In this document: piece after piece, positions 13,585-57,867 of the stretch | Numbering within the stretch: position 1 is the first letter of the stretch | Layout of the letters: the number at the start of each line of letters is the position of its first letter | Source: Rhizophagus irregularis | Lineage: Eukaryota | Direction: 5' to 3' | Length of the DNA stretch: 64,000 bases | NCBI RefSeq assembly: GCF_026210795.1 | Contig: NC_089429.1 | Location: 6,944,001-7,008,000 of the forward strand | Program-made: the position numbers and the translations under genes | The notes under the pieces: generated by a model | The model's database searches: none | The model's input: the letters and a program-made list of their open reading frames with translations, nothing else | Told to the model about the DNA's origin: nothing

Positions 13585-14097
13585 CTACACTCGGTGGGAA
13601 CTATGAAAAATGAAGAAAAAAGAACTACAGCAATGAGAACAGAATTAGAAGTTGAAGATCAATTAGTAAATGTAATAATAGATACTGGAGCAGCAGTAAG
13701 TGTGATAACAGATAAATTAAGAAGAAGATTGAATATACCTATATTTGGAAAAAGTAAATTTAGATGTACAATAGCAAATGGGCAAAAGATAGCGGCGTTA
13801 GGAAAGGCAAATATAACTTTGAGGTACAAAGATGAATTAGAGATACTGAAAGAAGTTGAAGTGATCAATTCAGAAGAAGAGGATCTAATTTTGGGAAATG
13901 ACATATGGAAGTTGTATAATGCAAAAATAAATTTTGAAGATCATACCTTAAGAATAGAAGAACAGGGAGAAATAATAACGATTCCAGTAGGATATGAAAG
14001 AGAAGTAGCATATGAAAGTGAGGAGAGTGAGGACGATGAAGAATATGAAAGTAACGATGAAGGAGAGGTATTCAAAATGCACCAGAATTTTAAATAG
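13585..14097 (+). CDS. Retropepsin-like aspartic protease
   Basis: IIDTGAAVSVI active site and LILGND motif; in frame with gag across TGA-CTA. Confidence 0.9.
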   Translation, partial: LHSVGTMKNEEKRTTAMRTELEVEDQLVNVIIDTGAAVSVITDKLRRRLNIPIFGKSKFRCTIANGQKIAALGKANITLRYKDELEILKEVEVINSEEEDLILGNDIWKLYNAKINFEDHTLRIEEQGEIITIPVGYEREVAYESEESEDDEEYESNDEGEVFKMHQNFK

Positions 14098-16166
14098 AGA
14101 GTCTTGGCTCTGAAGAGAGAGAGACGGAAAAGATGCTCGAACTAAGTGAAAAATTTATGCAAAAACTAAGTATAGGAGAAGTAGAAGAACCAATTTGGGA
14201 AAATATGGTAAAATTACTATTAGAATACCAAGATATTTTAGAATACGACGAGGAAATAGAAGGAATAACAAAAGCAGCGCAACATGAGATAAAGATAAAA
14301 GAAGGGGTAGAACCAATAAAGCAAAGAAGATACAAAGAAACAGATGAAAAGGCAAAATTTATAAGCGAAGAAGTGGATAAATTGTTAAAACAGGGAAGGA
14401 TAAGGAAATCAAAAAGTCCATGGAGTTCACCTGTTACATTAGCAGGAAAGAAAACAGGAAAATATAGGTTCTGTATTGATTACAGAAAGTTAAACAAGAT
14501 AACTATAATGGATAGTTTTCCTTTGCCAAGAATGGATGAATTGTTAGACAAATACAGAAAAGCAAAATGGTTTTCAAGTATAGATCTAGCGGCAGGATTT
14601 AATCAGGTAGAAATGAAAGAAGAAGACAAAGAAAAAACAGCATTTGTATGTTCGAAAGGATTGTTTGAATATAATGTAATGCCATTCGGTTTAACGAATG
14701 CACCAGCAACATTTCAAAGATTAATGGACGAAATATTGGAAGAATACATAAACGATTTTGTAGTAGTATATATCAATGATATTATGATATATTCAGAAAA
14801 TTTGAAAGACCATATGGAACATGTGGAAAAAGTATTAAAGAAGTTACAGGAGAATAATTTAATAATAAAATTGAAGAAATGTAGATTTTTGGAAAGAAAC
14901 ATAGAATTTTTGAAACATATTGTAGGAAATGATGGATTAAGGCCAGACGATAAAAAGATAGAAAAGATAAAAGAAATGAAGGCACCAACCACAGTAAAAG
15001 AAGTAAGATCATTTTTAGGACTTTGTTCATATTACAGAAAATTTGTGAAGAATTTTTCAAAGATAGCAAGACCAATAAGTGATTTGAGAAAGAAGGGAAT
15101 ACCTTTCATTTGGGGAAGAGAACAACAAGAAGCGTTTGAAAAATTGAAAGAAAAGTTAATACAATATCCAATATTACGACATCCAGATTGGAAGAAAGAA
15201 TTTTTATTAATAACAGATGCATCAGGAAAAGGATTAGGTGCAGTATTAAGTCAAAAAGATGAAAAAGGAAAAGAAGTAGTAATAGCATACGCAAGTAGAA
15301 GTTTATTACCAGCAGAAGAAAATTATCCGATAACAGAATTGGAATGTTTAGGAATAGTTTGGGGAATTCAACATTTTCATAAATATTTAATCGATAGAAA
15401 ATTTAAAGTAATAACAGATCACAGTGCATTAAAGGGATTAATGAATGCAAAGATACCGAAAGGAAAAAGAGCGAGATGGGTAATGGAATTACAGCAATAT
15501 AATTTTGAAGTAATACATAGATCAGGAAAAGAAAACACGAATGCTGACGCATTGAGTAGGTTATTAAAGATAGCAGAGGATCAACCAGAAATAGTAATAA
15601 TCGATGGAGTAGATGGATTAGGAAAAACAAGTATAGTACAAAATTTAATTAAAGAATGGGAAAAGCAAGGATTAAAAGTAAGATTCAATACTTATAAAAG
15701 AAGAAGAAAAGATAAAGATAAATTTTATGAATCAAAGATGGAGACAGAATGGAAATTCAGAAAAGAAGTAGTAGAACAAATAAATAGAAGAATGTTAGAA
15801 TATGATGAAAATACAGATATAATAATTTTAGACAAATCACCATATTGTGAATATTATTATCAAAAGACGAAAAGTTTTGACAGAGGATTAATTACTCCAC
15901 ATGGAAATCATGAGATGGAAAAAGAAATATTCAGATTGAAAGAAATAATAGATAAATCAATAGTGATATTTTTAGAAAAAGATGGCGATGTATGTTGGAA
16001 GAATTACATCGGAAGAGAAACAAAGAAAATGGAAAAATCATCATATCCAACATTAAAAAAGGATGAATATTTGGACATGGTTAAAATGTTTGAAGAAAAT
16101 CAGAGTGTGTACAAAGATACCAAAAGATACAGTCGAGTAAAAGTTAAAAACGACAATAGTAGCTAG
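14094..16166 (+). pseudogene. pol: Pol: reverse transcriptase + RNase H + C-terminal P-loop NMP/dNMP-kinase-like domain
   Basis: RFCIDYRKLN, MPFGLTNAPATFQR, YIND (mutated YxDD), TDASG...NADALSR, then IIDGVDGLGKT and IILDKSPYCEYYYQ. Confidence 0.92.
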
Positions 16167-18661: not shown

Positions 18662-19594
18662 ACGCCAAACTCAATTTTTTTAGAGGTAAATAATTTTTTT
18701 AAAAAAATCTTTCAGCAACACCTTAACATTTCTTTTTTTATTTTTAGGGATATCAGATATCTTGTTTTTTAAAAAGATTTCTTTTGGAGTATCTAACACT
18801 CTTTTTCTTTTATTTTTGAAAACACTGGACACATTAAAGGTAAATGGGTGTTTTTTTTGAAAAAAAAATTATTATTGAAATTTCGTTAACGTTTCTTTTT
18901 AATTTTTAGGAATACTGATTTTTCTTGAAGCTCAATGTTGTTTTTTTAAAATAAAACCAGGTTCAAAAAATTTTTTTTTTTATTTTATGAATACGACCTA
19001 GAAGGTAAATGGACAATTCTTTTAAAAAAAACTCCTATCTATTATTAAAAAATTTCTTTGAAAACTTTACTAGCCTTTCTAGAAATCTTGGACTTTCTTG
19101 AACTCTCTTGGTAAAAGAATTTGCGCCTATTTGATTTTAATTAGCAGTTTTATAATAATTTACAGAATCAGCCAATTTATTGACCAATTTGTTAAATATA
19201 TGATCGGCAAATTATTTACTGATTTGTCAACAATGTAACCTAATTAACCAAAAATGGCTCATATAAACAAACCTTTAAAATAAAAAAATAGCAATGAAAA
19301 AAAAATTTTTTGTTTATCTAGACGAAAAAACAACTTATTACGAAATTTTTTTTTTACAAAAAAGTAACCTATTTAACTAAAAATGGCATATATAAACAAA
19401 CCATTTTTTTTGTTTAAAATAAACAAACTAGTAAAATTTATGACGAAAAAATAAACAACTAGTGAAACTTATGACGAAATTTTGTTTTTTACAAAAAAGT
19501 ATGATAAATTTTTTTTTTATTTAAAAAGTAAATAAATAATTAGCGAAAACTAAACATCCTTTTTCTTCTATCTATTTTCATTTTTTATATAAAA

Positions 19595-22111
19595 ATGTCA
19601 GAAGTTTGGGAATATTTCCAAAAAATTAGAAATGACAATAATGTCATTATATCATTAAACTGCCAATTATGTGAAACAGAATATGGAGTATTAACTTCTA
19701 CAACAACACTTCGTCGACACTTAAGAAGTATTCATGCTTCTACGTATGTATATGGACCAAACCTTTTATCACAAAACTCTTCTTATACTTCTGCTGAACA
19801 AAAACATATAACAACAAAGCTTACACAATGGGTTACTGTTGATTTACAACCTTTTACTGTTGTTGAACAAGAACAGTTTCAGGAGTTAATTTATACTTTA
19901 GATCCACGTTACATTTTACCATGCAGGCAAACTTTGAAAGAAGAAGTAAATTCATTATTTTTACAAAGAAGAGCAAATGTCAAATCCGAAATTGATAATC
20001 TTACATCAAAAATTTCTTTAACAACTGATATTTGGTCTTCTACATATAATAATACAGCCTTTTTAGGAATTACAATGCATTACATTACCAATAACTGGAC
20101 AATGAAAAAATGTTTATTGGATTTTATTTCCATAGAGGAATCCCATTCAGCAGCACTAATTTTAACTAAACTAACTGATGTTTTACAAGAATTTAATATA
20201 AGTAATAGAATCATATCTCTTACAACTGACAATGGTAGCAACATGTTAGCATGTGGAAGAGAACTTGCTAATGAATTAGAGGCAGGATTTTTTAATTTTA
20301 CATTTTCTCATAATAGATGTGTAGCACATATAATCAATTTGGCAGTTAAGGCTGGAATGAAATATTTGGACTCTTCTATTGTCAAATTGCGAAAATTTGT
20401 TAATAAAATAAAAAATTCTCAATTATTAATTGATGATCTTAAAAGTATTTGTAAAATTAAAAATGTAAAATTTCTAATGCCAATACAAGATGTTGACACA
20501 AGGTGGAATGCAACTTACCAAATGATTGAAAGACAAATTTCTACACGAGATGTAATAGAAATCTTAGTGAATTCTCATAACAATATATTAAAAGATTTAT
20601 ATCCAACAGATATTGAATGGAGAAAAATATTGGTATATTTTCAAATTTTTTTTAATTTTTAATTTAAATTAAATTTTTTTATTGAATTAATTTGAAAATT
20701 AATTAAATTAATTTTTTTATATACTATTAGGAATTAGTTGATGTATTAAAACCTATGTATAAAGCTACTATTTTACTTTCATCAACATCAACACCAACGC
20801 AAGGAGATTTGCGTCTAGCTTTTTTGGGAATGCTAGCTTCTTTGCGACGTCAGCGACAATCAGATCTAGCAAATGCCATATATGACAAACTTTGGACCTA
20901 TTGGAACAGACATTTATCTAAATCATTAGCTATTTCTGCAATTCTTGATCCACGTTACAAACTTACAACTTTTCATAATCAAGAAGAACGCAAAAATTAT
21001 ATTAATCATTTACAAACTTTATTTTCTTCGTACATATCAAATTCCCAAATTACATCAAATACAACAGATGTACACTACCCTCCCAAAAGTATCCGGTCAA
21101 CCAATAAAGATCATATTTTATTAATAATAATTAATATTTAGTTGGCCATCCATGCATGCTTCAATTTGGCGTGGCATGCTCTCAATTAAATTTTAATGTA
21201 AGTTTTGGATGGAATTCTTTCTCACTTTTTTTTTAGCCATTAATCCAGTATTAAAATTTTTGTATCGAACAATTATGTCTGTAACAGTACTTTTTGGAAA
21301 TTTTAGGATATGACTGATTGCTTCATAAGTTTTTATCCTTTCCAAAGGCTAATAATTTTCTCACGCTCACTCAATTCACGAGTTTTTCACATTTTAAAAG
21401 TAGCCGAATGGCACAGTAACAAAAAAAGCAAAGATCAGCATTGGCAAAATTGAGGTGTTATTATTTGTTTTATTGCCAAATCTGGTACAAGCATCGTAAT
21501 ACAATAAAAATACATTCATTTTAATCGTTAGAACCAGGGGAATTGTTTTTTTTTTAAAAAATAATACTTTATATATTCAATCTTGAGAAAATCAAGTTGA
21601 GCTTGGCCGGATACTTTTGGGAAGGTAGTGTAACTTCGCAAGATTCAAGAACTTATTTTTAAATATGATTAATAATAGTCAAAATTATGCAGAAAATTCG
21701 GAATATGATGAAATTAATAATTATTTGAGTACACCATGTGATATTAATGCAGATCCGTTAGTGTGGTGGAATGTTCACCAAAAAAATTATCCTACACTTT
21801 CACTAATAGCAAAGGATTATTTAATTATACAAGCCACAAGTGTATCATCAGAGCAAGCCTTTTCAGTGGCAGGTAATACTATTACACAAACAAGAAATAG
21901 GCTGGATCCTGAAACAGCACGTGCAACTTTATGTCTTAAAAGTTGGATTGAGAATAAGTTGGGAATTAATATAACTAATGAAGATGATAAAGAAACTAGT
22001 AGTAATAGTAGTGATAGTGATTATTGTGATAGTACTAGTATTATTAGCAGTGAAGACAGTGATAATGATGACAGTAATAGTGAAGATAGTGATAGTGAAA
22101 GTGAAAGTTAA
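19595..22111 (+). pseudogene. hAT (Ac-like) transposase with BED finger, one intron (20633-20730), interrupted by a Tc1 derivative
   Basis: VWEYF..CQLC..LRRHLRSIH BED finger; LTTDIWS, TTDNGSN, RCVAHIINL, TRWN; dimerisation domain PLVWW..YPTLSLIAKDYL..SEQAFS; the GT-AG intron preserves frame. Confidence 0.93.
21073..21630 (-). mobile_element. Internally deleted Tc1/mariner element
   Basis: ~28-bp TIRs (CACTACCCTCCCAAAAGTATCCGGTCAA), TA TSD; minus strand retains an HTH N-terminus (RELSEREKII..PKSTVTDII) and the C-terminus (ESMPRQIEAC..PTKY). Confidence 0.92.
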
Positions 22112-24559
22112 TGTTTTTTTATTTTAATTATTCATTAATTATGTTTTTACATAAAGGAATTTTCAAAAAAAACTTTCAATAAAGTCCAAATTCAATATTC
22201 CTAAAATAAAGAAAACTTTTAAAAAAATGTATATTTAAAAGAGTTCTAATGGTTTTGGTGTTAAAAAAGAATTTTAACAAATGTCATTTACTTCCAAGAA
22301 AAGAGTTCAGCATTCATAAAAATAATAAAGAAGTCTTTAAAGTTTCTAAATAATTTTTTTTAAAAAAAATTAATTGCATCCAATAAAATCAAAGAAATCA
22401 GATATTTCTAAAAATAAAAAACGTTAGACATTTCTAAAGAATTTTTTTAAAAAAAAATGTCATTACCTTTAAGAAATAGTCTAAGGTATCTGGTGTTCCT
22501 GAAATAAAAGAAAGAAATGTTAGAGACATTTCTAAAAGAATTTTTTATAAAAAAAAACGTCTAATTACATTGTATTTAGCGTTCCTAAAATAAAGAAATA
22601 TTGGAGATGTTTCTAAAGAAATTTTTTTAAAAAAAACGCCAATTTGCCTTTAAGAAAGTCCAAAGAGTTCAGCACCCCTAAAGTTTTTTTTTAAGAAAAA
22701 TGTTTCTAAACTAGTTAATTAAAATTAAAATAAAAAATTATCAAAAAAAAAATTTGGTACAAATTTTTTTTCATAGGACCGATCGGTCCTGGTCCACAGT
22801 CCGATCCTGAACTGCGGACTGATGAAGACCGGATCAGGACTGACCAGACCGGACCATTAACATCCTTAGGCACAGGAGACCCTAAATCGCAATTTATTTT
22901 TTTGATGTCAAAAAAGCATAAGTATATGCATTATGATTATGAGTATAAATTGTCATACTCATATTCTAATTATAAAGCATAATGCTTTAAGTATTATTAT
23001 AAAATGCAACTCAAATTTTTATTTGAGCTTTTCTAAAATTGATCAAAAAACATATTAATTCTTGATGATCACCTACAACACTATCCAAATTAAGCGAAAA
23101 AATGGATAAATTTGGAAATGATCTGATCACCTTCTACGCTAAAATAAACTAAAAAATCAGACTACCAATTTTTTTTTAATAAAAATGAACTGATTTTTAT
23201 TAAAAAAATCAGTATATTGTTATATTTTTTTTTTAATTAAAAAAGCTGATTTTTATTAAAAAAATCAGTATATTTTTTGATTTTTGATGATCAACACAAA
23301 AGTAAGAAATGTAAATTTCTTCATAATCTATCAAGTCAATAATCATTTTTAGTAGCACAGAAAAATTCAGTGCAAAAGTTTCTATAATGATTGTTTAAAT
23401 CTTAGTGTCTTAAGTCTTAAATCTTATGTCTTAAGTCTTATGTCTTAATTGCCGATCCACGAATGAATCGGACCTAGTGATCGGCAAAATCAAATCTCCA
23501 CTTCCAAAAAAAGTAAAGTCGGTCAATTTTTAGCCAAACCAATTAAATTTTTTTTTTAAAAAAACTTAGAGATTAAATCTATTTTGTAAAAATATAAATT
23601 TAAGTATTTCAAAACTCAAAATTTTGCGAATTGCTTTTAAATATCATCAATTAGCGAAATTTTAGTAAAAATTATTTATCATTTTTTTTTCTAATAAAAA
23701 TACTAGCAAGAAGTCTCAAAATTCACACATATATACTTTGGACATATATTAATAGAATATTTAAAAAAAAATGATATAATAAATGTAAAAATATTTCCTA
23801 CTTTAAGGTTAACTAACAATAATCCATTTTCCCATTTTTAATGCTTATATGAAACTTTTATAAATCAATCTTTAGGAATTTAAAAATGGTAATTTTATCT
23901 TAAAATATAAGTTCTGAACATATTTAAAGCATTTATTTTCAAATTATTAAGTGAAAAAATTTTTCAGTTTTGTGTCGATGGTTACACAAATTACGAATTG
24001 AAGAAATTTAAAGTTTATTGGTGAAAGTTTGACTTTTTTAAGAGCTATTTTTGATACTTTAATAAAATAAAGCAAATGTCAAAGTTTTTTCATTAAAAAT
24101 TTCAATCTATTCGATTAAAAATTGGTGGATATTCCTATATTGGAAATGCAGATTTAAGGGGTGGTCCGATTGGTACATGGATTACTAATTAAGTCTTATA
24201 TACTAAGTACTAAATACTAAGTATATTAAAGATTAAAATGGACCTTTTTTTACCAAAAAGGAAATCTTTTTGAATTCAATGGCTAGATCAATAATAAATT
24301 AGGAAATGATTGACAATAGAAAATTTCTTAAAATTTGAAAAATTCTTCATTTTTGCAAAAAATGCTCAACAAATGATTATCTGAGTTAGTGTTCTGAACG
24401 GATCAGGTCAATTCGGGTGACCCGTCGGGTTGACCCGAAAATTTCGGGTCGGGTCATCAAATTTATGACCCGACCTCGGGTCGGGTCACAGTTTGACCTG
24501 ATTCGTTGACCCGTTTGACCCGACATAATATTTCTGGTCAGATGTGTCAAATATGTAAA

Positions 24560-25259
24560 AAAAAACGCCAAAACGTTTTTTTTTGTATTATTATTAAGAA
24601 AAAATGTTTTGGCGTTTTTTCATATAAAATTATTAAAAAAAATGCAGAAACGTTTTTTTTTATATTAATTATTATATAAAAAACGTTTCGGCATTTTTTC
24701 ATATAAAATTATTAGAAAAAAATGCCGAAACGTTTTTTTTGCATGATTATTAAGAAAAAATGTTTCGGCATTTTTTCATATAAAATTATTAGAAAAAAAA
24801 TGCCGAAACGTTTTTTTTTTGCATTATTATTAAGAAAAAACGTTTCGGCGTTTTTTCATATAAAATTTAAAAAAAACGCCAAAACGTTTTTTTTTATATT
24901 ACTTATTAAGAAAAAACGTTTCGGCGTTTTTTCATGTAAATTATATTTAAAAAAAATGCCGAAACCGTTTTTTTTTTGTATTAGTTGTTAAGAAAAAACA
25001 TTTCGGCATTTTTTCATATAAAATTATTAGAAAAAAACGCGAAACGTTTTTTTTTGTATTAGTTGTTAAGAAAAAACGTTTCAGCATTTTTTCATATAAA
25101 ATTATTAAAAAAAAATGCCGAAACGTTTTTTTTTATATTAATTATTATAGAAAAAACGTTTCGGCGTTTTTTCATATAAAATTATTAGAAAAAAACGCGA
25201 AACGTTTTTTTTTTGCATGATTATTAAGAAAAAACGTTTTGGCGTTTTTTCATATAAAA
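24560..25259. repeat. Alternating-orientation AAACGTTTCGGCG repeat array (resumes at 28637-28980)
   Basis: Repeated ~80-bp units, each holding an inverted pair of the same motif. Confidence 0.9.
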
Positions 25260-25599: not shown

Positions 25600-26650
25600 C
25601 AGGTGGTGTTCCTATAAAACTATCAATAAAATGTTAGGAAATGTTCTTAAACAAAATTAGCAAAAGAAAACCTTTGTCTCCAAGAGTCTCTGAAAGTCGT
25701 TCCTATAAAAAAAATTATTAAAAGAACATTAGGAACATTCTTGAACAAAATTAACAAAAGAAATAAAAGAAAACTTACTTTTTATCTCCAAGAGTCTCCA
25801 GGGGGCATTCCTATAAAAAAAATTATTGAAAGAACGTTAGAAACATTCTTAAACAGAATTAAGAAAAGAGACGAAAAAGAAAACTTACCTTTCGTCTAGG
25901 GTGTTTTTACAAAAAAAATTATCGAAAGAACATTAGGAAATGTTCTTAAACAAAATTAGCAAAAGAAAATGAAATCCTTTTGTCTCCAAGAGTCTCTGGG
26001 AGGCGTTCCTATAAAAAAATTATTCAAAGAATGTTAGGGAACATTCTTAAATGAAATTAACAAAAGAAAACATAAAAAACTTACCTTTCATCTCCAAGAG
26101 TCACCAGGAGGCGTTCTATAAAAAAAATTATTGGAAGAATGTTAGGAAATGTTCTTAAACGACATTAGCAAAAGAAACAAAAAAGAAACATTACCTTTCA
26201 TCTCCAGAGTCACCAGGAGGCGTTTCTACAAAAAAATTATTGAAAGAATGTTAGGAAACGTTCTTAAATGAAATTAACAAAAGAAAACAAAAAAGAAACA
26301 TTACCTTTCATCTCCAAGAGTCACCAGGAGGTGTTCCTATAAAAAAAATTATTGAAGAACGTTAGGAAATGTTCTTAAATGACATTAACAAAAGAAACAA
26401 AAAAGAAACATTACCTTCATCTCCAGAGTCGCCAGGAGGCGTTCCTACAAAAAAATTATTGAAAGAACGTTAGGAAACGTTCTTAAATGACATTAAAAGA
26501 AAACAAAAAAGAAACATTACCTTTCATCTCCAAGAGTCACCAGGAGGTGTTCCTATAAAAAAAATTACTGAAAGAACGTTAGGAACGTTCTTGAACGAAA
26601 TGAATGGGAAAAAATGAAAAAAACACCTTTTATTTTTAGGAGTCCATTTT
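25600..26650 (-). repeat. ~120-bp tandem micro-exon/intron units (~8 copies)
   Basis: TAG|GAACACCTCCTGGTGACTCTTGGAGATGAAAG|GTAAT...CCTAAC...TTTTGTAG repeated. Confidence 0.85.
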
Positions 26651-26845
26651 GTCTTCAGGGTATTCCTACAAAAAAAGGGTAATGAAAAAAAAACATTATA
26701 AAATGTTCCTAAATGAAGTAAAAATAAAAATAAAAAATAAAAAATAGATTGATTATCTAAATACACAACCAATAAAATTTTAAAATCACATCACGTGATA
26801 GGGTGCATTTGAACGCCAGGTGCGTTTAAATTTTAAACCCTTTTA

Positions 26846-28501: not shown

Positions 28502-29439
28502 TATATATATAAAATAATTAGTACTGTTAGGCGCAAATGAATCATGTGAATCATGCGATACAATTCAAAGATTATTTATACAGGCTAATCTAAACGTTAG
28601 AAGATCGACATGTATTTTTTTATTATATTATATAGATTATTAGAAAAAAAACGCTGAAACGTTTTTTTTTGTATTAATTATTATAGAAAAAATGTTTTGG
28701 CGTTTTTTCATATAAAATTATTAAAAAAAACGCCGAAACGTTTTTTTTTTGTCATTATTATTAAGAAAAAACGTTTTGGCGTTTTTTCATGTAAATTATA
28801 TTAAAAAAATGCCGAAAACGTTTTTTTTTGTATTAGTTGTTAAGAAAAAACGTTTCGGCGTTTTTTCATATAAAATTATAAAAAAAAATGTCGAAACATT
28901 TTTTTTTTGTATTAATTATTAAGAAAAAACGTTTCAGCGTTTTTTCATATAATAAATATTAAAAAAACGCCGAAACGTTACTTTTTAACAGAAAAATGTC
29001 AAGTTTGGCATTTTTTTGTTTTTTTTAACTAAAAAACGTCGGGTTGACGTTTTCAATTAAAAAACCCGGGTTTTTTTAATTTTTTAATCATTTTTGATAC
29101 ACAGGTCAAACGGGTCAAACGGGTCGGATCAGGTAAGACAGATTACCTGACCCAACCCGACCCGATTTTTTTTGTCGGGTCGGGTAAGATGGATTACCCG
29201 ACCTGACCCGACCCGTTCGGAATACTAATCTGAGTGTTATTGTGATATTTCATAAAAAATATTTTTCTTACTATTTTTATTTTTAAACTACTTGAATTTA
29301 TAATTAATGAAAGAATTAATTTAAAATCCATGTCAAGTTATTTTCAAATTTTTATCATCTCAGTTCTTAATTTTCATATTTTTATTTTTTATATAAAATT
29401 TTTTTAAATTAAACTTCTTTTACCAAATACACTATAATC

Positions 29440-31235: not shown

Positions 31236-32436
31236 CATGTAATACTATTGCAAATTTTATTTTATTTTTATTTTTTTTATTTACAAATTTTTATGTTAAT
31301 TTTGATTAAAAATTAAAAGCAAATTCTATTTTTATTTAAAATTTTTTATTATTTACAATTTTTATGTTAATCAATTAAAAATTAAAAGCAAATTCTATTT
31401 TTATTATAACTTATAAAAAAAATACACATTTGATACTTGTTTGCTACTATTTTATAAAATAGTACCCAGGCTATATAACATGAATGTCAGTATCAGTTGC
31501 AGCCCAAAAAAAATGTGAGTCTTTACCCTTTATTTGGTATGGACTGGCCTTCGCTACTCTAAGGATACTGGAGAAACTAAGGAGTTTTGGCAAGTTAGCA
31601 AAATGTTGAAATAGCAAAACTTTGCCAAAACTATATGAAAGTCTTATTAAAAAGTTGGCAAAACTTTGGAGAAAAGTGAAACCTAACAAAACTTATTATA
31701 AATGCTGAAACTGCCAAAATCTTGCCAAAACTATAGTAAAACTATAGTAAAATCTTGAAGAAACTAATCGTAGAATTTTGGAGAGGTTTAGGCAGGTAAC
31801 CTTACATTACTCATTCATGTGTAAATATAAATTTAAAAGTAAAATTATCTTCTTCTATGATACGTAAGTAGGTTTCTTCTCCTCCTACGATCATGGTTCA
31901 TTTCTAAGAAATTTACAGATTTAGTAAATATTATTTATACAAATTTTCATTACAATATAATATTATAATTACTCAGCCTCTCCCAAAAGGCCAAAACCTA
32001 GTTCAGAATAGCCTAAAATACCTTTTGCCAGTACGCGTATATAGTCTTCATCTGGGAATACTATTATGATATAAACAAAAATTCTAAATATCAAAAAAAT
32101 TAACATTAATAAAATGAATAATATTTAATTATATGACAAATATAAAATTTAATATTCAATTTATATTTTTTATTTATTCTTTCATTTACATGATAATCCC
32201 TAAGGAGATTTTGCCACTTCTGGCTGCATTGTTGTCCGGTGAAGTGCGTATCAAATCTGTCATTTATTCTAATTCAATTAAATGGATTAGTTAATTTAAA
32301 GATTTTTCTCAATTTCTATAAAATAAAATATTGTACACATGATAATATGAACCTTCATGCAATTACAGATCAAAATTCTTGGCGGCTTGTCCCATATAAA
32401 CTGTAATATTATGCATTTTTTGTGAACGGTGCCATA

Positions 32437-35400
32437 CTACTGGTCAGAATAGTCCATTTTGTCCAAATTTCAAATTGATGAATGTTGGATGAAAGTTGGT
32501 CTAATTTTGGCCGATCATTGCCAAAAAAATCGTCAAAATTATTATGGACAATTTGCACAGTTTGTCTGCCACTTAGCAATCACAAATCGGCAAAATTCAT
32601 TAAAAATCAGAAATAAACTATTCGTCAACCTTTTGCTAGTCATTCGTCTAAATTTTAAATTGTGAAATTGAGTCTAATTTTGTCTAATTGTTAATGATTT
32701 TTATGTATTTAGTTTATTTTAATTTTGCAATAACAATCAATTAATTATATTTTATTTTTTCACTTTATTAAAATTACACATTAAAAATTATTATATTAAA
32801 TATCAAATATCTACAGTATCTGTCTATTTACACCTACCATTCACCATTTACCATCCACCATCCACTATTTACCATTTACCATTCACCATCCATTGTCAAC
32901 CATTATCAACCATTGTCAACTATCATCCACATCCATCATCTACTATTCATCATTCACCATCTATCGTCCACCATTATCTACTATCATCCACTCATCCAAA
33001 ATTATCTACAACTTACTTTATCTGACAAAAGTCCGAAAGAGAAACCTACAAAAAAAATAAAGAAATGGTTAGTAAACTGTTATTATTTCAATAAAAAAAT
33101 GTCAAAGTTTTGAAGATTCAAAACCTACCCATTCAATAGAAGTCCGAAAGAAAAACCTACAAAAAAAAATAAATAAACGGGTAGTAAACTGATTCTTTAA
33201 TAAAAAAAATTTTAGTTTTGAAATATTTTGAAATTTACCTAACGAAAAATTCAAAGTGAAACCTATAAAAAAAAGAAGAAACGATTAGTTAAAGTTTCTT
33301 TAAAAAAAAAATAATTTCAAAATATGAAATTTACCTGATTTATTCAATATAAAGTGGAAACTTACAAAAAAAGGAAAGAAATGATTAGTTTTTTATTAAA
33401 AAAGTTTTGAAAAAGAAAGTGAAATTTTGAAACTCACCTATTCAAAGCCCAAGGATATCACAACTGATACCTACAAAATAAAAAAATAAATAAATAAAAT
33501 TAAAAATTTATTTTTAAAGTTTTGAAAAGAAACAAAGCTTTGAAACTCACCTATCCAAAATCCAAGAACCAAAAGTCAAAACCTACAAAAATGAAAAAAA
33601 GATTAAAATAAAATTAAAAAAGTAATTTTTTTTAAAAAAAGTTTTGAAGTTATTATTCCAAACTCACCCATATATTCAAAGCCTAATAACTGAAAGCTGA
33701 AACCTACAAAATAGAAAAAAAAATTAAAATAAAATTAAAAAAATCTTTTTTTTAAATAGTTTTAAAGTTTTAACTTCAAAACTTACCCATATATCCAAAG
33801 TCCAACCAAAAGTCGAAACCTACAAAATAGAAAAAAAAGATTAAAATAAAATTAAAAAAAAATCTTTTTTTAAAATAAGTTTCAAAGTTTTACTTCAAAA
33901 CTTACCCATATATCCAAAGCCCAAGAACCAAAAGTCAAAACCTACAAAAAAGAAAAAAAGATTAAAATAAAATAAAAAAAAAATCTTTTTTTTAAATAAG
34001 TTTCAAAGTTTCACTTCAAAACTTACCCATATATCCAAAGCCCAAGAACCAAAAGTCAAAACCTATAAAAAAGAAAAAAAAATTAAAATAAAATTAAAAA
34101 AAAATATTTTTTTTTAAAAAAAAGTTTCAAAGTTTTCCGTATATCCAATGCTCAAAAACTGAAGGCTGAACCTACAAAATGAAAAAAAAAAATTAAAATA
34201 ATTTTTTTCAAAAAAAGTTTTGAAGTTTTACTTTGAAACTTATCCATATATCTAACGCTTAAGAACCAAAAGCTGAAACCTACAAAATAGAAGAAAAAAA
34301 TAAAAAAAATTTAAAAAAAAATAATTTTATTTTAAAGAGTTTTAATTTCTTCGCTTCAAAACTCATCTATATATCTAATGTGAAGCTGAAACCTACAAAA
34401 TAGAAGAAAAAAAAATCAAAAAAAATATAATAAAAATAAAAAAAATAAGATTCGTATTTGTATTTACAAATTTTGGTTTATCTATTCATCAGAAATCCAT
34501 CCAACCTATAAAAAAAAGAGAAAAACGGTTATTAGTAACTATTCGTAATATTAAAAATAAAAAAAAACAAAACTAAGATTTGTATATACTTACGAATTTT
34601 GGTTTTCTGATCTTTGGAAGCCTATTCAAATCTAAAAAAAATGAAAAGAACGGTTATTAGTAACTGTTCATTAATATTAAAAAAAAAATAATAAAAATAA
34701 AACCAAGATTCATATATACTTATGATAAGTAAATCGTTCTTTAAAAAAAAGATAGTTTTGAAGAGATTCTTCAAAACTTACCTTTGGGATTCAGTATCCA
34801 AGTAGGAACCGATTTTCCTACAAGAAAAAGATAAAAAAACATTAAAAAAACGTTTTTTATGACATTAATAGTTTCAAAAAAAAAAATTTTGAAACTAACC
34901 TTTGGGATTTCAGTATCCAAGTAGGAGCCAATATCCCTATAATTAAATATAAAAAAAAATGTTTATTTTAACATTTTTTTTAATAGTTTTGAAGAGATTC
35001 TTCAAAACTTACCTTTGGGATTCAGTATCCATGCCGAAACTGATATCCTTACAATAATATAAAAAAAAATGTTAGAAATTAACATTTTTTTATTAAAGTT
35101 TTGAAAATTCTGGAAACTTATCTTGGAATTCAGTATCCATGCCAGAACTGAATTCCTATATAGAAAAAATCAAAAAAAAATGTTTTTAAAAAAGTTTTGA
35201 AATATTTTATTTTGAAACTTACCTGGAATATTGGCGTCCACATTTGAGCTGAATTCCTATATAGAAAAATCAAAAAAAAATGTTTTTTATTAAAAAACAT
35301 TTTTAAAAAAGTTTCAAAACATTTGTTTTAAAACTTATCTGGAATATCGGCATCCACATTGGAGCTGAATTCCTATATAAAAAAATCAAAAAAAAAACAT

Positions 35401-36250
35401 TTTTTTATTAAAAAACATTTTTAAAGAAGTTTCAAAACTTACCTGAAATATCGGTGTTTACGTTGGAGTTGAATTCCTATATAGAAAAATAAAAAAAACG
35501 TTTTTAAAGTTTTGAAACATTTTGTTTTGAAACTTAACTGGAATATCGGCGTCTCATGTTGGAGCTGAATTCCTATATAAAAAAATCGAAAAAAAAAAAC
35601 ATTTTTTTTTATTAAAAAATGTTTTTAAAGTTTTGAAACATTTTGTTTTGAAACTTACCTGGAATATCAGTGTTCACGTTGGAGCCAAATTCCTATATAA
35701 AAAAATCAAAATAAAAAACATTTTTTTTACTAAAAAACGTTTTATTAAAGGAAGTTCCAAAAATCTTTCAAAACTTACCTGAAATATCGTTATCCACGCC
35801 AGAACCGATTAAACAAAAAAAATGCTTTGAGAAAAAGATTTTTTTTCAAAATAGTTGAAATAGTTTAAACTATTATTAATAGTCTAAATTTGGTAATAGA
35901 TCAACTAATTACTGTGACTGCAGCTTAATACATCATATGATCATAAGTTGAAGTGTATCACTGATTTGCTAAACTTTTGCCATTATTGATATTAATTAAT
36001 TAAAAAATTGTTTAAAAATTGTCAAAAAAGTTTTTAAGTTAATTGTAAATCAATAAAAAAAAGTATTGGTCGATTTATGGTTTTTTTTATATTACAACTC
36101 AACCAAAAATCAACCAAAAATCAACCAGTTTATTTATGCCAAATTTTTTTTGATTTTTGTAATTAGCCGAATGTATGATGAATCATATGATTGATTTGCC
36201 AAATTGTTGCCGAAAGGTCTTATTGACAAAATAAATGATTTTGACCAGTG
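32437..36250. mobile_element. ~3.8-kb non-autonomous TIR element filled with splice-unit repeats
   Basis: Ends (T)ACTGGTCAGAA / TTTTGACCAGTG with TA on both sides; the flanks rejoin as a continuous reading frame on the minus strand. Confidence 0.7.
33020..35800 (-). repeat. Long array of micro-exon/intron units (several subfamilies, >20 units)
   Basis: For example TTTGTAG|GTTTTGACTTTTGGTTCTTGGGCTTTGGATATATGG|GTAAGT and TATAG|GAATTTGGCTCC...GATATTCCAG|GTAAGT. Confidence 0.85.
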
Positions 36251-36793
36251 TACGGCAGGACGAATTCAGGATGAAGCTTGATAACATAGCATGATTAAAA
36301 TTAAAAATATATTTGAGATCAGAAAAGATTAATAAATTTTGAAATTATTTGCTTGTATTAAATGGTGTTGATTGACAAAGGGTTCGTATCTCTATACTTT
36401 TTGGCGTTGAGTAATACATGGCATTTTTCAACACTTTATACTCCTGTTTAAAACTTCCTGATGATGAATGGTTAAAATATTCACTAAGAAATTGACTAGT
36501 ATCATTAAAAAATAAATTATAGCCAAAGTACTAAAATTACGCCATAAAATTTTTTTTATAAGTTTCAATTTTATTTCATTTATTTATATTTTAATATTTA
36601 TTTTTTCAGCCTTCTGAAAAAAAAAACAGTCCCATTACTTTCAGCCTTCTGAAAGTATGAAGAAAAAAACATTTTTTTTTTAAAAAAAAAAATGGAAAAA
36701 AAAATCTAATCTTCTTGCGGCAGGTTCCTATAAAAAGATAGTTACAATTGAACCATAGTTATTATAATAAATAATTTATTGTATAATATTCAC

Positions 36794-37123
36794 TTACTGC
36801 TGAGATTCATTTTTAAGACATTTTTCTAAAAATAATTGATATTCTTGCTCATTCATCCAAGGTGAAACTGGCATTTTTCCCTTGTACTTACATTTCTTTG
36901 AAAAGTGTCCTCTCCTCCAACACCTAATACAATACTCTTGAAATTCAGTTGGGATTTCAGGACACTTTTGGATCCAGTGACCTGGAGTATTACAAAAGTA
37001 ACATATGTTTTGTTTCTTTGACGTGTTATTTATGTGTAAGTCAGCAATTACTTGTGTAGTGATTCGTAATGCGTTTAAAATTCCTTCAATCTTTTTTTCA
37101 ATAATGTCTAGTTTTTCAGACAT
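36794..37123 (-). CDS. Small protein with two CCHC zinc knuckles
   Basis: CYFCNTPGHWIQKC and CIRCWRRGHFSKKC; a putative 5'-UTR intron (GTAAGG...TTAG) ends at the ATG. Confidence 0.75.
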   Translation of the reverse strand: MSEKLDIIEKKIEGILNALRITTQVIADLHINNTSKKQNICYFCNTPGHWIQKCPEIPTEFQEYCIRCWRRGHFSKKCKYKGKMPVSPWMNEQEYQLFLEKCLKNESQQ

Positions 37124-46432: not shown

Positions 46433-48229
46433 AATTTTCTATATGTTCTATTATCAGATTTAGTCCCTGTAAAAAATGTGATCCATGTTCATATTTCCAT
46501 GATTTTTCCGTGAATGTATCATTTTCACAGAATTTTTATGAAAGTTAGAGAAATGATGGACTATATAACTAAAAAAAATTGTCTGACGTTTGGATTAATC
46601 TCCGTATAAATAATTTAAATTGTGTAACTTGAAATCCATATAATTAAAACCTGTGACATGCCTCCACAAAAACTATTCGATCCAACGATCCGTATACATG
46701 CCAATCAACTAATCCAATTTCAGTTAATAAAATTTTACCTTAATCGGAATTTTTTTTTTTTGATTAATAAATTTTTTGTCTGATTTTTTCTTTCCTTTTT
46801 CTTCTTTCAGTTTAGTTTTTTTTTAACCGAAAAATTTGTTTTTTCTCATTCTTTTCCCGTTTAGGTTTAATTTTTTTCCCAAGCTGAAAAATATTTTTTT
46901 TTATTAAACAATCCCTATTATTTTTTTTCGATCTTTTTTTTTTAGACCATATTGTTATTTTTCTTTAAAAAAAAATTTTTTTTTAGATCGAATTATTGTC
47001 CTTTTTTTTCAGAATTTTTTTTCGTACTTATTTTTTATTTTCGGATTCCTTTTTTTTAAAAAATTTCCCTTTTTTTTACACTGATTTCTTTCTTTATCCT
47101 TTTTCTTCCCCCAAATTTTTTTTAAATTTTTTTTTCTTTTTCTTTCAATTTTTCTTTTATTATTAAATAAAAAATAAAATATTATATTAAATATATTTAT
47201 ATATTTACAAAAGTATTATTTTTTTAAAAAAAAATCAATATAACATATAGGAAAATTGACCGATGTTGGTAGATAGATGAGTAAGATTTTTTCAATTAAA
47301 TTGGATAAATAGTTTGATTTTCAAATTCATAAAAATATAAAAAAAAATTGATATTTTTACATACTTTATAATTAATTGAAGAAATTGTTGATTTAATAAT
47401 AAATTATTATAACCAAATTCATATCTGAAATTCTCTAAATAATCACCAGATTTTTGAATAAATATTTTAATTCTAATGGTTTAGTTAAATTAATAATTTA
47501 TTGAGTAAAATGAGTAGTATCAAAAGAATAATAATAAATGAAATGATCAAATATTTTTCCTAAGTTGGTTATAAGTTAAAGATTGACGTAATATAAAATA
47601 AGAAATAATTATAAATTTATAATCAATTTATAAAGGTATTTGTAGTATTTTCATAATATTAAGGTTTTTCAAAAATACTTCTAAAAAATTAATCAAATAA
47701 ATGAGGGTGAATGAAAAATAGGGAGAGTAAAGGAAATAAAAGAAATGAAGGGGAGTGAGGGAGGAAAATAAAAGAAGAAAAAGTTAGTAGGGAACGGAAA
47801 TTACATGTAATAAATAAACAAAAATAAAAAAATAAAAAACATACCTTAGTAGTTGCAAAGAAGAACCGAAAGACCTAAAAAGAATGAAATACAAAATGTA
47901 ATAAATGAAATATTAAGAATTGAATGAAAAATAACTAAGAAAAAGAAACGACCATATAGTGCTGGTCATATCTTAATTGCAAAATTGAAAGAGCCAAAGG
48001 ACCTAAAAAAAATGAGATAAAGTTAGTAAGAACAAAATTGCAAGAAGCAAAAATGAAAAAAAAGAAAGAAAACGTATCTTGAGTGCCGTACAAAGGAGTG
48101 AAAAGGACCTAAAGAAAAAAAGATTATCCAAGTACGTTTAAAAAGTTTAAAAAAAAAAATAAATAATGAGGTGATATCATATAGGTTAGGTGAAAAATTG
48201 TTAAATCGCCCAAGGTGAAAATTAGTTAT

Positions 48230-56075: not shown

Positions 56076-57867
56076 TAAAGAAATCGTCTAAATAAACTTA
56101 CTACTATTCCCCTGATAAATAAAAGCTTCTGCTATTCTTTTACCAAATGGTAATAATAATTTTAAGAATCCTAAATATGTATTTTTTTCAAAGTCATATA
56201 TATTTATTTCCTAAAACTTTACAATTTTAAAAAGAACAATTTTCTAAATACTTAATAATATTTTATTATTTACTTTGAAATACTTTATTATTTATTTATG
56301 AATTCAAAAACACAATTTTACAATTAATTTACAAATTCGATAATATATTTTTTCGATGTCGGACAAAATCAGCCGACGATCGCCTTAATTTATAATATTT
56401 TTTTTTTCAATGAGAGGAAAAGAATAAATCATTAAATATGGAAAATTTTCCTATTAATATGAATAAGATTTTTTATTTTATTGTTTTAATTAAAGAATTA
56501 ACAAAACTGCAGTCCATCAGTTGTTTATTAGTCTACTTTTATGAGAACGATATAAAATAAACTTTAATTGGTACCATACGTCCATACGTAAAGTACACTC
56601 ATAAGCAAAAATAAAAAGTAAATTGAAACTTCGGTTCATGATAGAACTAATAAGGGAATGCCGATAAAAAAAATTTAATAAAGTTTTTTATTACCTACAG
56701 TAGATTACCTAATGCCTTATGCCTACCAATACTGTACCAAAGATATATTAAAATCTTATTTTTTTGATCGTTGCCATATCCATGTAATCAAAACGAAGTC
56801 GAATTAGCGAAAAAAAAATACGATAAGAATATAACGAACGATGTAATAAACTAATTCCCCGGATACCATATTATTAAATTATCTATATTAATTTATTTTT
56901 CTATTTCAAATATTTACAAAAATTATATACAACTCAAAAAAATAACTGGAAATGAAACAAAACAAAATCAGCATAACTTTTCAAAAAAAACAACGATATA
57001 CAATATAAACAAATGTGTACCATATCCAAATTAGGAACTTATACGTAAATACTTAAGCGAGTACCTTGAGCGTTAGGCACCATATATATGATTTAAATCT
57101 AGAAAAATTTAGTAAGAAAAGAAATTATTTAACATACGAAACTCACAAATTAAATCATATTTTAATTTAAAAACTTTTTTACAGAAACTTCAAGATCGTA
57201 GCGATGGCTTAATGCGCAGTAACTGCATATATGTAATTTCTTTACTATGTATTTATAACGCAGTTACTGCGCATTAAGCCATCGCTACGATCTTGAAGTT
57301 TCTGTAAAGTTGTTAGATAAATTAATCATATGTAAAAATGGAACAAATCTGTTAATCCTGATCCGATGACTAAACAATAATGAGATGGAAGTTTGATTTT
57401 TATTGAGAACGATTTTTAGAATCAAGAAAAATCTTTAATGCATGACCTAATAACAAATTAAGACAATGTTATTATTCAATTTTTTATTGTATCAAGAATG
57501 AAACAGTAATGATTCATTTACAATAGACTATTTATAGGCATAAATGATCGTCGTTTTAATAAAAAATAATCAATAAATTAAGTTAATTATCATGATTATT
57601 GGTGAATGAAAAAACTGTTATGACCGTTTCAATGTATCATGAGAACAAAATAAGAATTCGGAATATTTTTTTTCCGTACAAGATAAATAATTTATTTGTC
57701 ATCCAACTATTCGACGAATCTACTATCAATTCGATTTTACGAATGTTCTTAATAAAAATAATTTCAATATCCTTTTATTTTTTTGTAGTGGCTGCGTAAA
57801 ATACTTTTTGAGGCTTTGTATATAATATACTATTTGAAGATTTTTATTATTACAATAAATTTTCATT
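56076..57867 (+). repeat. Direct repeat copy 1 (paralogous to 61708-63804)
   Basis: Collinear high similarity from TAAAGAAATCGTCTAAATAAAC to AAATTTTCATTA. Confidence 0.92.
57178..57308. mobile_element. Fold-back mini-MITE (49-bp perfect arms)
   Basis: TTTACAGAAACTTCAAGATCG...AACTGC with its exact reverse complement; TA-CAG...CTG-TA ends; absent from the paralogous copy. Confidence 0.85.

Follow-up and report, generated by a model that had tools for sequence, protein, structure and literature searches.

Spliced transposon-derived long non-coding RNAs (lncRNAs) with few exons are already known in fungi. In Blumeria hordei, lncRNAs derived from transposable elements (TEs) are partly spliced and include intron-retaining isoforms; they have a mean of 2.3 exons, fewer than 1.9% have more than five, and most are antisense to TE genes (PMC10648671). 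Two annotated non-coding RNAs, CNAG_12018 and CNAG_12019, lie within the Cryptococcus DNA transposon KDZ1, and one of the two has been linked to small RNAs (PMC11343200). Short CAC-led ends and target duplications of 2 to 3 bp are typical of CACTA/EnSpm elements (PMC2613891, PMC12810828), which also produce spliced internal transcripts of the tnpA type (PMC2613891) and include the fungal EnSpm-like element CNEST, with CACGG ends (PMC12810828). Many very short exons are found in the micro-exon genes of Schistosoma, which encode secreted proteins and have introns of 0.2 to 5 kb (bioRxiv 10.1101/2023.06.21.545858).

The element described here, from Rhizophagus irregularis, resembles the B. hordei RNAs in that it is fungal and TE-borne, with a probably non-coding product that is spliced in part and occurs in intron-retaining forms, but it is gene-less and has about 25 predicted exons arranged as tandem exon-intron units, a structure that does not figure in the available description of the B. 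hordei lncRNAs (PMC10648671). In CACTA/En-Spm elements and CNEST the exons are not tandem copies and encode a DNA-binding protein or transposase (PMC2613891, PMC12810828), whereas the present element has no open reading frame (ORF). KDZ1, unlike this element, is autonomous, and the accessible part of its description gives neither a tandem micro-exon structure nor an exon count (PMC11343200). Compared with the Schistosoma genes, the introns are short (about 80 nt), the exons do not keep frame, and the array is located in a transposon. The literature searched, which excluded supplements, TE libraries, and most subscription papers, yielded no description of tandem exon-intron units in a transposon, and PMC8647823 and PMC11075540, whose supplements and TE libraries may hold the element, use neither of the strings "intron" and "splic" in their main text. 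What appears to be new is the tandem exon-intron array within a transposon.

The window, meaning the whole 64,000-nt stretch analyzed (contig NC_089429.1, positions 6,944,001 to 7,008,000), has a GC content of about 25% and is crowded with transposon remains, together with BTB and F-box genes; host-gene introns within it are 70 and 80 nt long. Its main features outside the element are as follows (coordinates are those of the window).
9.6 to 17.4 kb: Ty3/gypsy element
19.5 to 22.1 kb: hAT element
25600-26710, minus strand: second tandem exon-intron array of about 9 to 10 units, with cores of 30 to 32 nt and introns of 76 to 79 nt, predicted from sequence
36713-37123, minus strand: CCHC gene with two knuckles, conserved among the annotations of R. 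irregularis

Several further features of this setting were recorded. The Ty3/gypsy pol (14094-16166, plus strand) contains a weak P-loop/thymidylate-kinase-like stretch between RNase H and integrase (E of 0.002 to 0.007, below cutoffs). The hAT transposase appears by eye to be interrupted at about 21060-21630 by a short element with matching inverted ends, and at 57178-57308 two arms of 49 nt form a perfect inverted repeat around a spacer of 33 nt. An 80-bp palindromic satellite is present in two copies (24559-25259 and 28644-28986) with almost no matches to the splice unit (one relaxed match at 28920). The CCHC ORF (37123-36794) is 99% identical to an R. irregularis protein and is followed by a 70-nt intron (36797-36728). 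In annotated relatives, translation runs on for six residues after this intron before it reaches a stop. Because of this early stop, and because the ORF is located beyond the limits of the element, its candidacy as a coding head for the array was rejected. At other loci the second half of the CCHC gene is joined to a different N-terminal region, and the viral contigs searched held no relative of the CCHC protein.

The preliminary description of this locus, made from the letters alone, had labeled it a transposon, a label now supported by end repeats that agree at 21 of 28 positions and by an exact GTA target-site duplication. The boundaries are as follows.
32438..36250: non-autonomous CACTG-ended DNA element, 3813 bp, defined by end repeats and target duplication
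36223..36250, minus strand: upstream terminal inverted repeat (TIR), begins CACTG, 21/28 letters identical to the other end
32438..32465, plus strand: downstream TIR, begins TACTG (first letter C>T), 21/28 identity with the other end
36251..36253, minus strand: target-site duplication GTA, upstream copy, exact match to the other flank
32435..32437, minus strand: target-site duplication GTA, downstream copy, exact match to the other flank

A 2-bp TA duplication with a one-base shift fits the flanks as well. The 28-bp TIR was spotted by eye and its matches were counted afterwards, and local alignment of the 400-bp ends gave no TIR above shuffled sequence (score of 98; shuffled maximum, 116). Because one more 21/28 match, a chance one that lacks a CACTG start, lies in another part of the window, the case for the TIR rests on the CACTG start and the duplication. 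We take CACTG to be a CACTA-type family end. The subterminal sequence contains an 11-bp repeat at 36099-36127 and, at the opposite end, four loose 12-mers, with no motif common to the two ends standing out statistically. No transposase was found among the element's ORFs scanned against Pfam, and from its sequence the element is likely a transposase-less member of the CACTA superfamily. A recent expansion of CMC elements has been reported in R. irregularis (PMC8647823). Just beyond the downstream end lies a weak Myb/SANT-like fragment (32109-32273, minus strand; E of 0.007), and the element may have inserted into another transposon's gene. A search for an end that would pair with the sequence at 31502 gave none, and reads cross this sequence.

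The minus strand carries a predicted first exon, which lacks an upstream acceptor and ends in the donor GTAAGT at 35778, and then 24 acceptor/core/donor units between 35692 and 33017, a number that bears out the preliminary count of more than 20 tandem units. A strict scan of 35830-33530 found 12 units on the minus strand and 0 on the plus strand (mean of 0.43 and maximum of 3 in 300 dinucleotide shuffles), and a window-wide scan found 31 matches on the minus strand versus 2 on the plus strand, 22 of them in the main array, where two units were counted twice. The predicted parts of the transcript are as follows.
35779..35817, minus strand: first exon, end only, with donor GTAAGT at 35778
35122..35692, minus strand: subfamily A, six cores of 34 to 35 nt with predicted introns, 3/6 donors dead
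34782..35048, minus strand: subfamily B, three A-related cores of 36 to 37 nt with predicted introns
34468..34631, minus strand: subfamily C, two cores of 38 nt, predicted introns without the donor hairpin
33438..34392, minus strand: subfamily D, nine cores of 26 to 36 nt, including those translating as VLTFGSWALDIW and VSTFGWTLDIW, 3/9 donors dead
33017..33361, minus strand: subfamily E, four cores of 24 to 29 nt
32713..33045, minus strand: last exon, formed by the final core and purine-rich short repeats, with AATAAA at 32769, 32756, and 32718

The first reading of the array had described GC-richer cores of 33 to 36 nt, drifted into subfamilies and followed by GTAAGT or GTGAGT donors. The cores are indeed richer in GC than the introns (38% versus 15%) and fall into five subfamily blocks, A to E, of which A, B, and C are linked as a chain; the cores of D and E resemble those of A little or not at all. 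The length given for the cores holds for 15 of the 24, but the full range is 24 to 38 nt; likewise, the two donor forms occur in 13 of 24 units, but GT itself is kept in 18 and lost in 6 (four G>A changes, one G>T change, and one deletion). An in-register TAG acceptor is present in 22 of 24 units, with TAA in the other two. Predicted introns are 61 to 88 nt long in 23 of 24 cases, the exception being 150 nt. In 20 of 23 introns a YTRAY branch-point motif falls within 50 nt, but such motifs are common in AT-rich DNA, and CTAAY lies at positions -23 to -27 in 6 of 23.

Excess conservation of the GT and AG positions, proposed earlier as a check, was not found within the window copy, where the splice-site G is changed at 7/47 sites and exon G/C at 34/128 (Fisher P = 0.16). 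The donor +2 T (23/23) and the acceptor -2 A (24/24) never vary, but substitutions of A and T are few in this copy and the units were partly picked on AG; intron positions +7, +8, and +11 equal the donor in constancy. In 11 of 23 introns (one intron was omitted), the initial 38 nt fold with a z score below -2, forming a hairpin whose stem spans the donor. This hairpin motif is recognizable in 16 of 23 introns, and its two variable dinucleotides are TG, CA, or TA and never CG, with Watson-Crick pairing at the variable sites kept in 4/16 and broken in 6/16. Compensatory change was considered and rejected, as the TG, CA, and TA states are those that decay of CG predicts; the stem reads as an old CG-bearing palindrome in free decay. 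Similarity among cores fades between subfamilies (pairs with a z score above 2: 0/24 for A versus E and 6/54 for A versus D), and intron positions +7 to +36 show kinship in 13/42 A-D and 11/21 B-D pairs versus 0/30, 0/15, and 0/35 in comparisons with the second array; pairs are not independent in either set. On this longer time scale, the donor, the acceptor, the intron length, and the 5' part of the intron persist among A, B, and D, but the cores do not.

RNA alignments were made for four runs from four studies (X6, X12, X20, and X23) on 31400-33476, a region that covers the last four of the 24 introns. The libraries are unstranded; X20 is recorded as poly(A) RNA, and X6 and X12 are presumed to be RNA. 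Seven joints were found, comprising four of the CT..AC type, two that are non-canonical, and one of the GT..AG type on the plus strand. The four CT..AC joints all occur in one X6 contig (depth of 18.3) and fall exactly at predicted intron ends, and they and the plus-strand joint delimit the following segments.
33361..33437, minus strand: intron removed, 77 nt (joint 33360-33438), X6 contig
33263..33334, minus strand: intron removed, 72 nt, X6 contig
33157..33238, minus strand: intron removed, 82 nt, X6 contig
33046..33128, minus strand: intron removed, 83 nt, X6 contig and one X23 read pair
32662..32816, plus strand: 155 nt skipped, GT..AG, T-rich, ending in CTACAG, one X6 contig (depth of 20.3)

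U2-type GT-AG introns are removed at 4/4 introns within the covered region in the probable RNA run X6, so that the earlier phrase "heavily spliced" applies to the last four of the 24 introns. The 77-nt length of the first of these introns matches the AAG acceptor of the window copy, which lies one base beyond a dead TAG>TAA site, and this fit suggests that the spliced contig comes from the window copy or one nearly identical to it. At 32817-33045, contigs with 0 differences are present in X6 and X12, the latter contig stopping at 33045. The segment skipped at 32662-32816 could be an intron of an antisense transcript or reflect a deletion allele; in the former case, the downstream end may give rise to a spliced antisense RNA. 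The non-canonical joints (33081-33259 and 33258-33366) were taken as misplacement between units. Nor was the junction beyond 33436 accepted as proof of splicing: it is always joined (55 X20 reads and 53 X23 reads), which a genomic fusion in another copy fits too.

Other copies of the family contribute most of the signal, as few reads are at least 99% alike to the window copy (12/353 in X20 and 1/198 in X23), and where they differ, they mostly have C or G in place of T or A in the window. In X20, 40 reads have a 32-nt D-type exon, from another copy, directly upstream of the 33470-type exon, and in X23, 41 reads show intron letters at that place (consensus agreement of 0.77 and 0.72; set against the window by eye), so both spliced and retained forms of this one junction occur. 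Unspliced reads are common. The summed depth of X6 contigs at the 33470 exon is about 1190, so some family member is abundant. Depth at 31820-32029 is 0 in all four runs, and in the raw-read runs it drops close to 0 across the downstream inverted repeat and to 0 below 32660; the zero depth at 31820-32029 and the near-zero depth over the repeat count against DNA as the source. Raw-read depth stops just below the three AATAAA sites, and AATAAA is the poly(A) signal in R. irregularis (PMC10234402).

The product of the array had been proposed to be either a non-coding RNA or a repeat peptide, and of these the former is favored. Core lengths leave remainders of 0, 1, and 2 on division by 3 in 10, 7, and 7 cases, so that, as noted in the preliminary description, some cores keep frame and others do not. 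The joined cores (799 nt) contain 7, 16, and 11 stops in the three frames; the total of 34 lies at the low edge of the range in 1000 dinucleotide shuffles (33 to 49), the best frame has 7 stops versus 10.4 expected (range of 6 to 14), and the longest open stretch is 76 codons versus 77 expected, all within the shuffle range. Across the full predicted transcript, the longest frame to begin with ATG has 46 codons. The peptides VLTFGSWALDIW and VSTFGWTLDIW are genuine translations but are flanked by frame-shifting cores. Exons expressed from other copies include one of 32 nt and one with a 2-nt insertion. Searches with intron-spanning frames, a weak test, gave no true protein relative among 35 candidates and no usable match in a protein atlas; the single phmmer match (P0017) was an unrelated repeat protein. 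A metagenome scan with the exon motif returned two matches (L001 and L002), both chance bacterial contigs. No Rfam match at an E of 0.1 or lower lies within 33560-36300, where the array thus does not look like a host gene for snoRNAs or other small RNAs, and with 10/24 lengths divisible by 3 and no ORF, it does not qualify as a micro-exon gene, whose exons keep frame and encode a secreted protein. The predicted product of the window copy exceeds 200 nt without a coding frame, as in an lncRNA. Judged from sequence, the product is likely non-coding, and a peptide is unlikely.

Units of similar layout occur elsewhere in the window. The second array equals the main array in layout and shares no intron similarity with it; its stem encloses a CTAAC branch motif, and no TIR or end repeats were found for it or for the hAT element. 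Decayed exon-intron-like units flank the hAT transposase at 18680-19010 (plus strand) and 22200-22650 (minus strand), both sets apparently facing inward, with three donor-like sites per side and few intact pairs, a weak signal. Equally weak are three short cores at 47840-48110 (minus strand), each with a T-tract, TAG, and a GTC-led start, spaced about 106 to 128 bp apart and accompanied by one GTATGT donor.

The reading that we tentatively prefer, at somewhat less than even probability, is that an exon-intron unit was amplified in tandem into an intron-dense non-coding RNA and was favored because its splicing would mimic a host gene and so lessen silencing of the element. The architecture, the end repeats, and the target duplication are the portion of this scheme visible in the DNA, and splicing at the predicted GT-AG sites, with retained forms, is seen for the 3' end alone. 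A single unit would have been amplified through unequal exchange; each subfamily occupies a block, and the introns of A, B, and D remain alike in their 5' part although the cores have diverged. The transcript would start inside the CACTG end and stop near the AATAAA cluster, giving a mature RNA of about 1.2 to 1.6 kb. By analogy, the useful trait would be the act of splicing and not the exon sequence: splicing would stabilize or export the RNA, and copies would remain active in transcription, carry less methylation, and stay open to a transposase supplied in trans. In Cryptococcus, introns act cumulatively on expression and export (PMC5851062), introns protect from HUSH, a human system (PMC8770142), and expressed TEs in R. 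irregularis have lower mCG. The Glomhoppers of Gigaspora cut both ways for a benefit of splicing; their intronless copies are expressed 2 to 8 times higher (PMC13465315), a point against mimicry. The role suggested earlier for the array, in silencing or export, may thus be proposed by analogy. The window copy itself would now be in decay through G:C>A:T changes, without visible selection. The exact X6 joints, the forms seen in X20 and X23, and the absence of coding signs were counted for mimicry of a host gene, as were the zero and near-zero depths that speak against DNA, host-like intron lengths across unrelated cores, the kinship of intron positions +7 to +36, and the like layout in unrelated sequence at 25.6-26.6 kb. 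Counted against it were the lack of significant conservation of the splice-site G, the dead donors (6/24) and in-register acceptors (2/24), the constancy of positions +7, +8, and +11, the uncompensated decay of the hairpin, and the common unspliced reads.

A close rival, somewhat doubtful in itself, is that an exon-intron unit from a multi-exon accessory gene or untranslated region of the parent element expanded as a minisatellite does and is spliced merely because it is transcribed. Block-wise subfamilies, a window copy without excess conservation, and a freely decaying hairpin are all in line with such a neutral by-product, as are nearby palindromic satellites without splice sites and the multi-exon accessory transcripts of CACTA elements, of which that of soybean Tgmt* is predicted to have 21 exons (PMC2613891); left unexplained are the survival of donor, acceptor, and intron length while the cores lost all similarity and the equal layout of another array in unrelated sequence. 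The folding over the donor in 11/23 introns, the abundant intron-retaining reads, and the single plus-strand GT..AG joint could also point to a self-limiting trigger of silencing: spliceosomes would stall on donors buried in hairpins and on closely packed micro-exons, and this stalling, combined with an antisense transcript, would yield small RNAs against the family. Poorly spliced TE transcripts feed small interfering RNA production in Cryptococcus (PMC5851062), and R. irregularis has AGO-loaded 24-nt small RNAs, but the donors are near consensus, four successive introns are fully spliced, and some family member is abundant in X6, and such a trigger seems improbable. A repeat peptide encoded by the joined cores of younger copies is very unlikely: some cores are open 33- or 36-mers, the stop total lies at the low edge of the shuffles, and A/T drift adds stops to the window copy, so that cleaner copies could be more open, but the remainders of the core lengths, the best-frame stops, the open stretch, the 46-codon ATG frame, the expressed exons of other copies, and the protein searches (a weak test) speak against it.

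Returning to mimicry of a host gene, several unrelated DNA-transposon families of arbuscular mycorrhizal fungi could, as a more speculative and rather unlikely extension, have independently grown protein-free "intron satellites" whose sole job would be to load spliceosomes on element RNA, countering a splicing-based test of self and non-self by the host. Unclassified repeats make up 24% of the R. irregularis genome and were omitted from TE analyses (PMC8647823), and a 3.8-kb TIR element without transposase would fit neither class kept by one curated library (PMC11075540). Such arrays could also be stitched by gene predictors into false "orphan" genes. The finding bears on the question of whether introns mark "self" in fungal genome defense and whether transposons exploit that mark, and a multicopy family with countable, partly broken introns would make this question testable with the existing long-read, small-RNA, and methylome data for R. 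irregularis.
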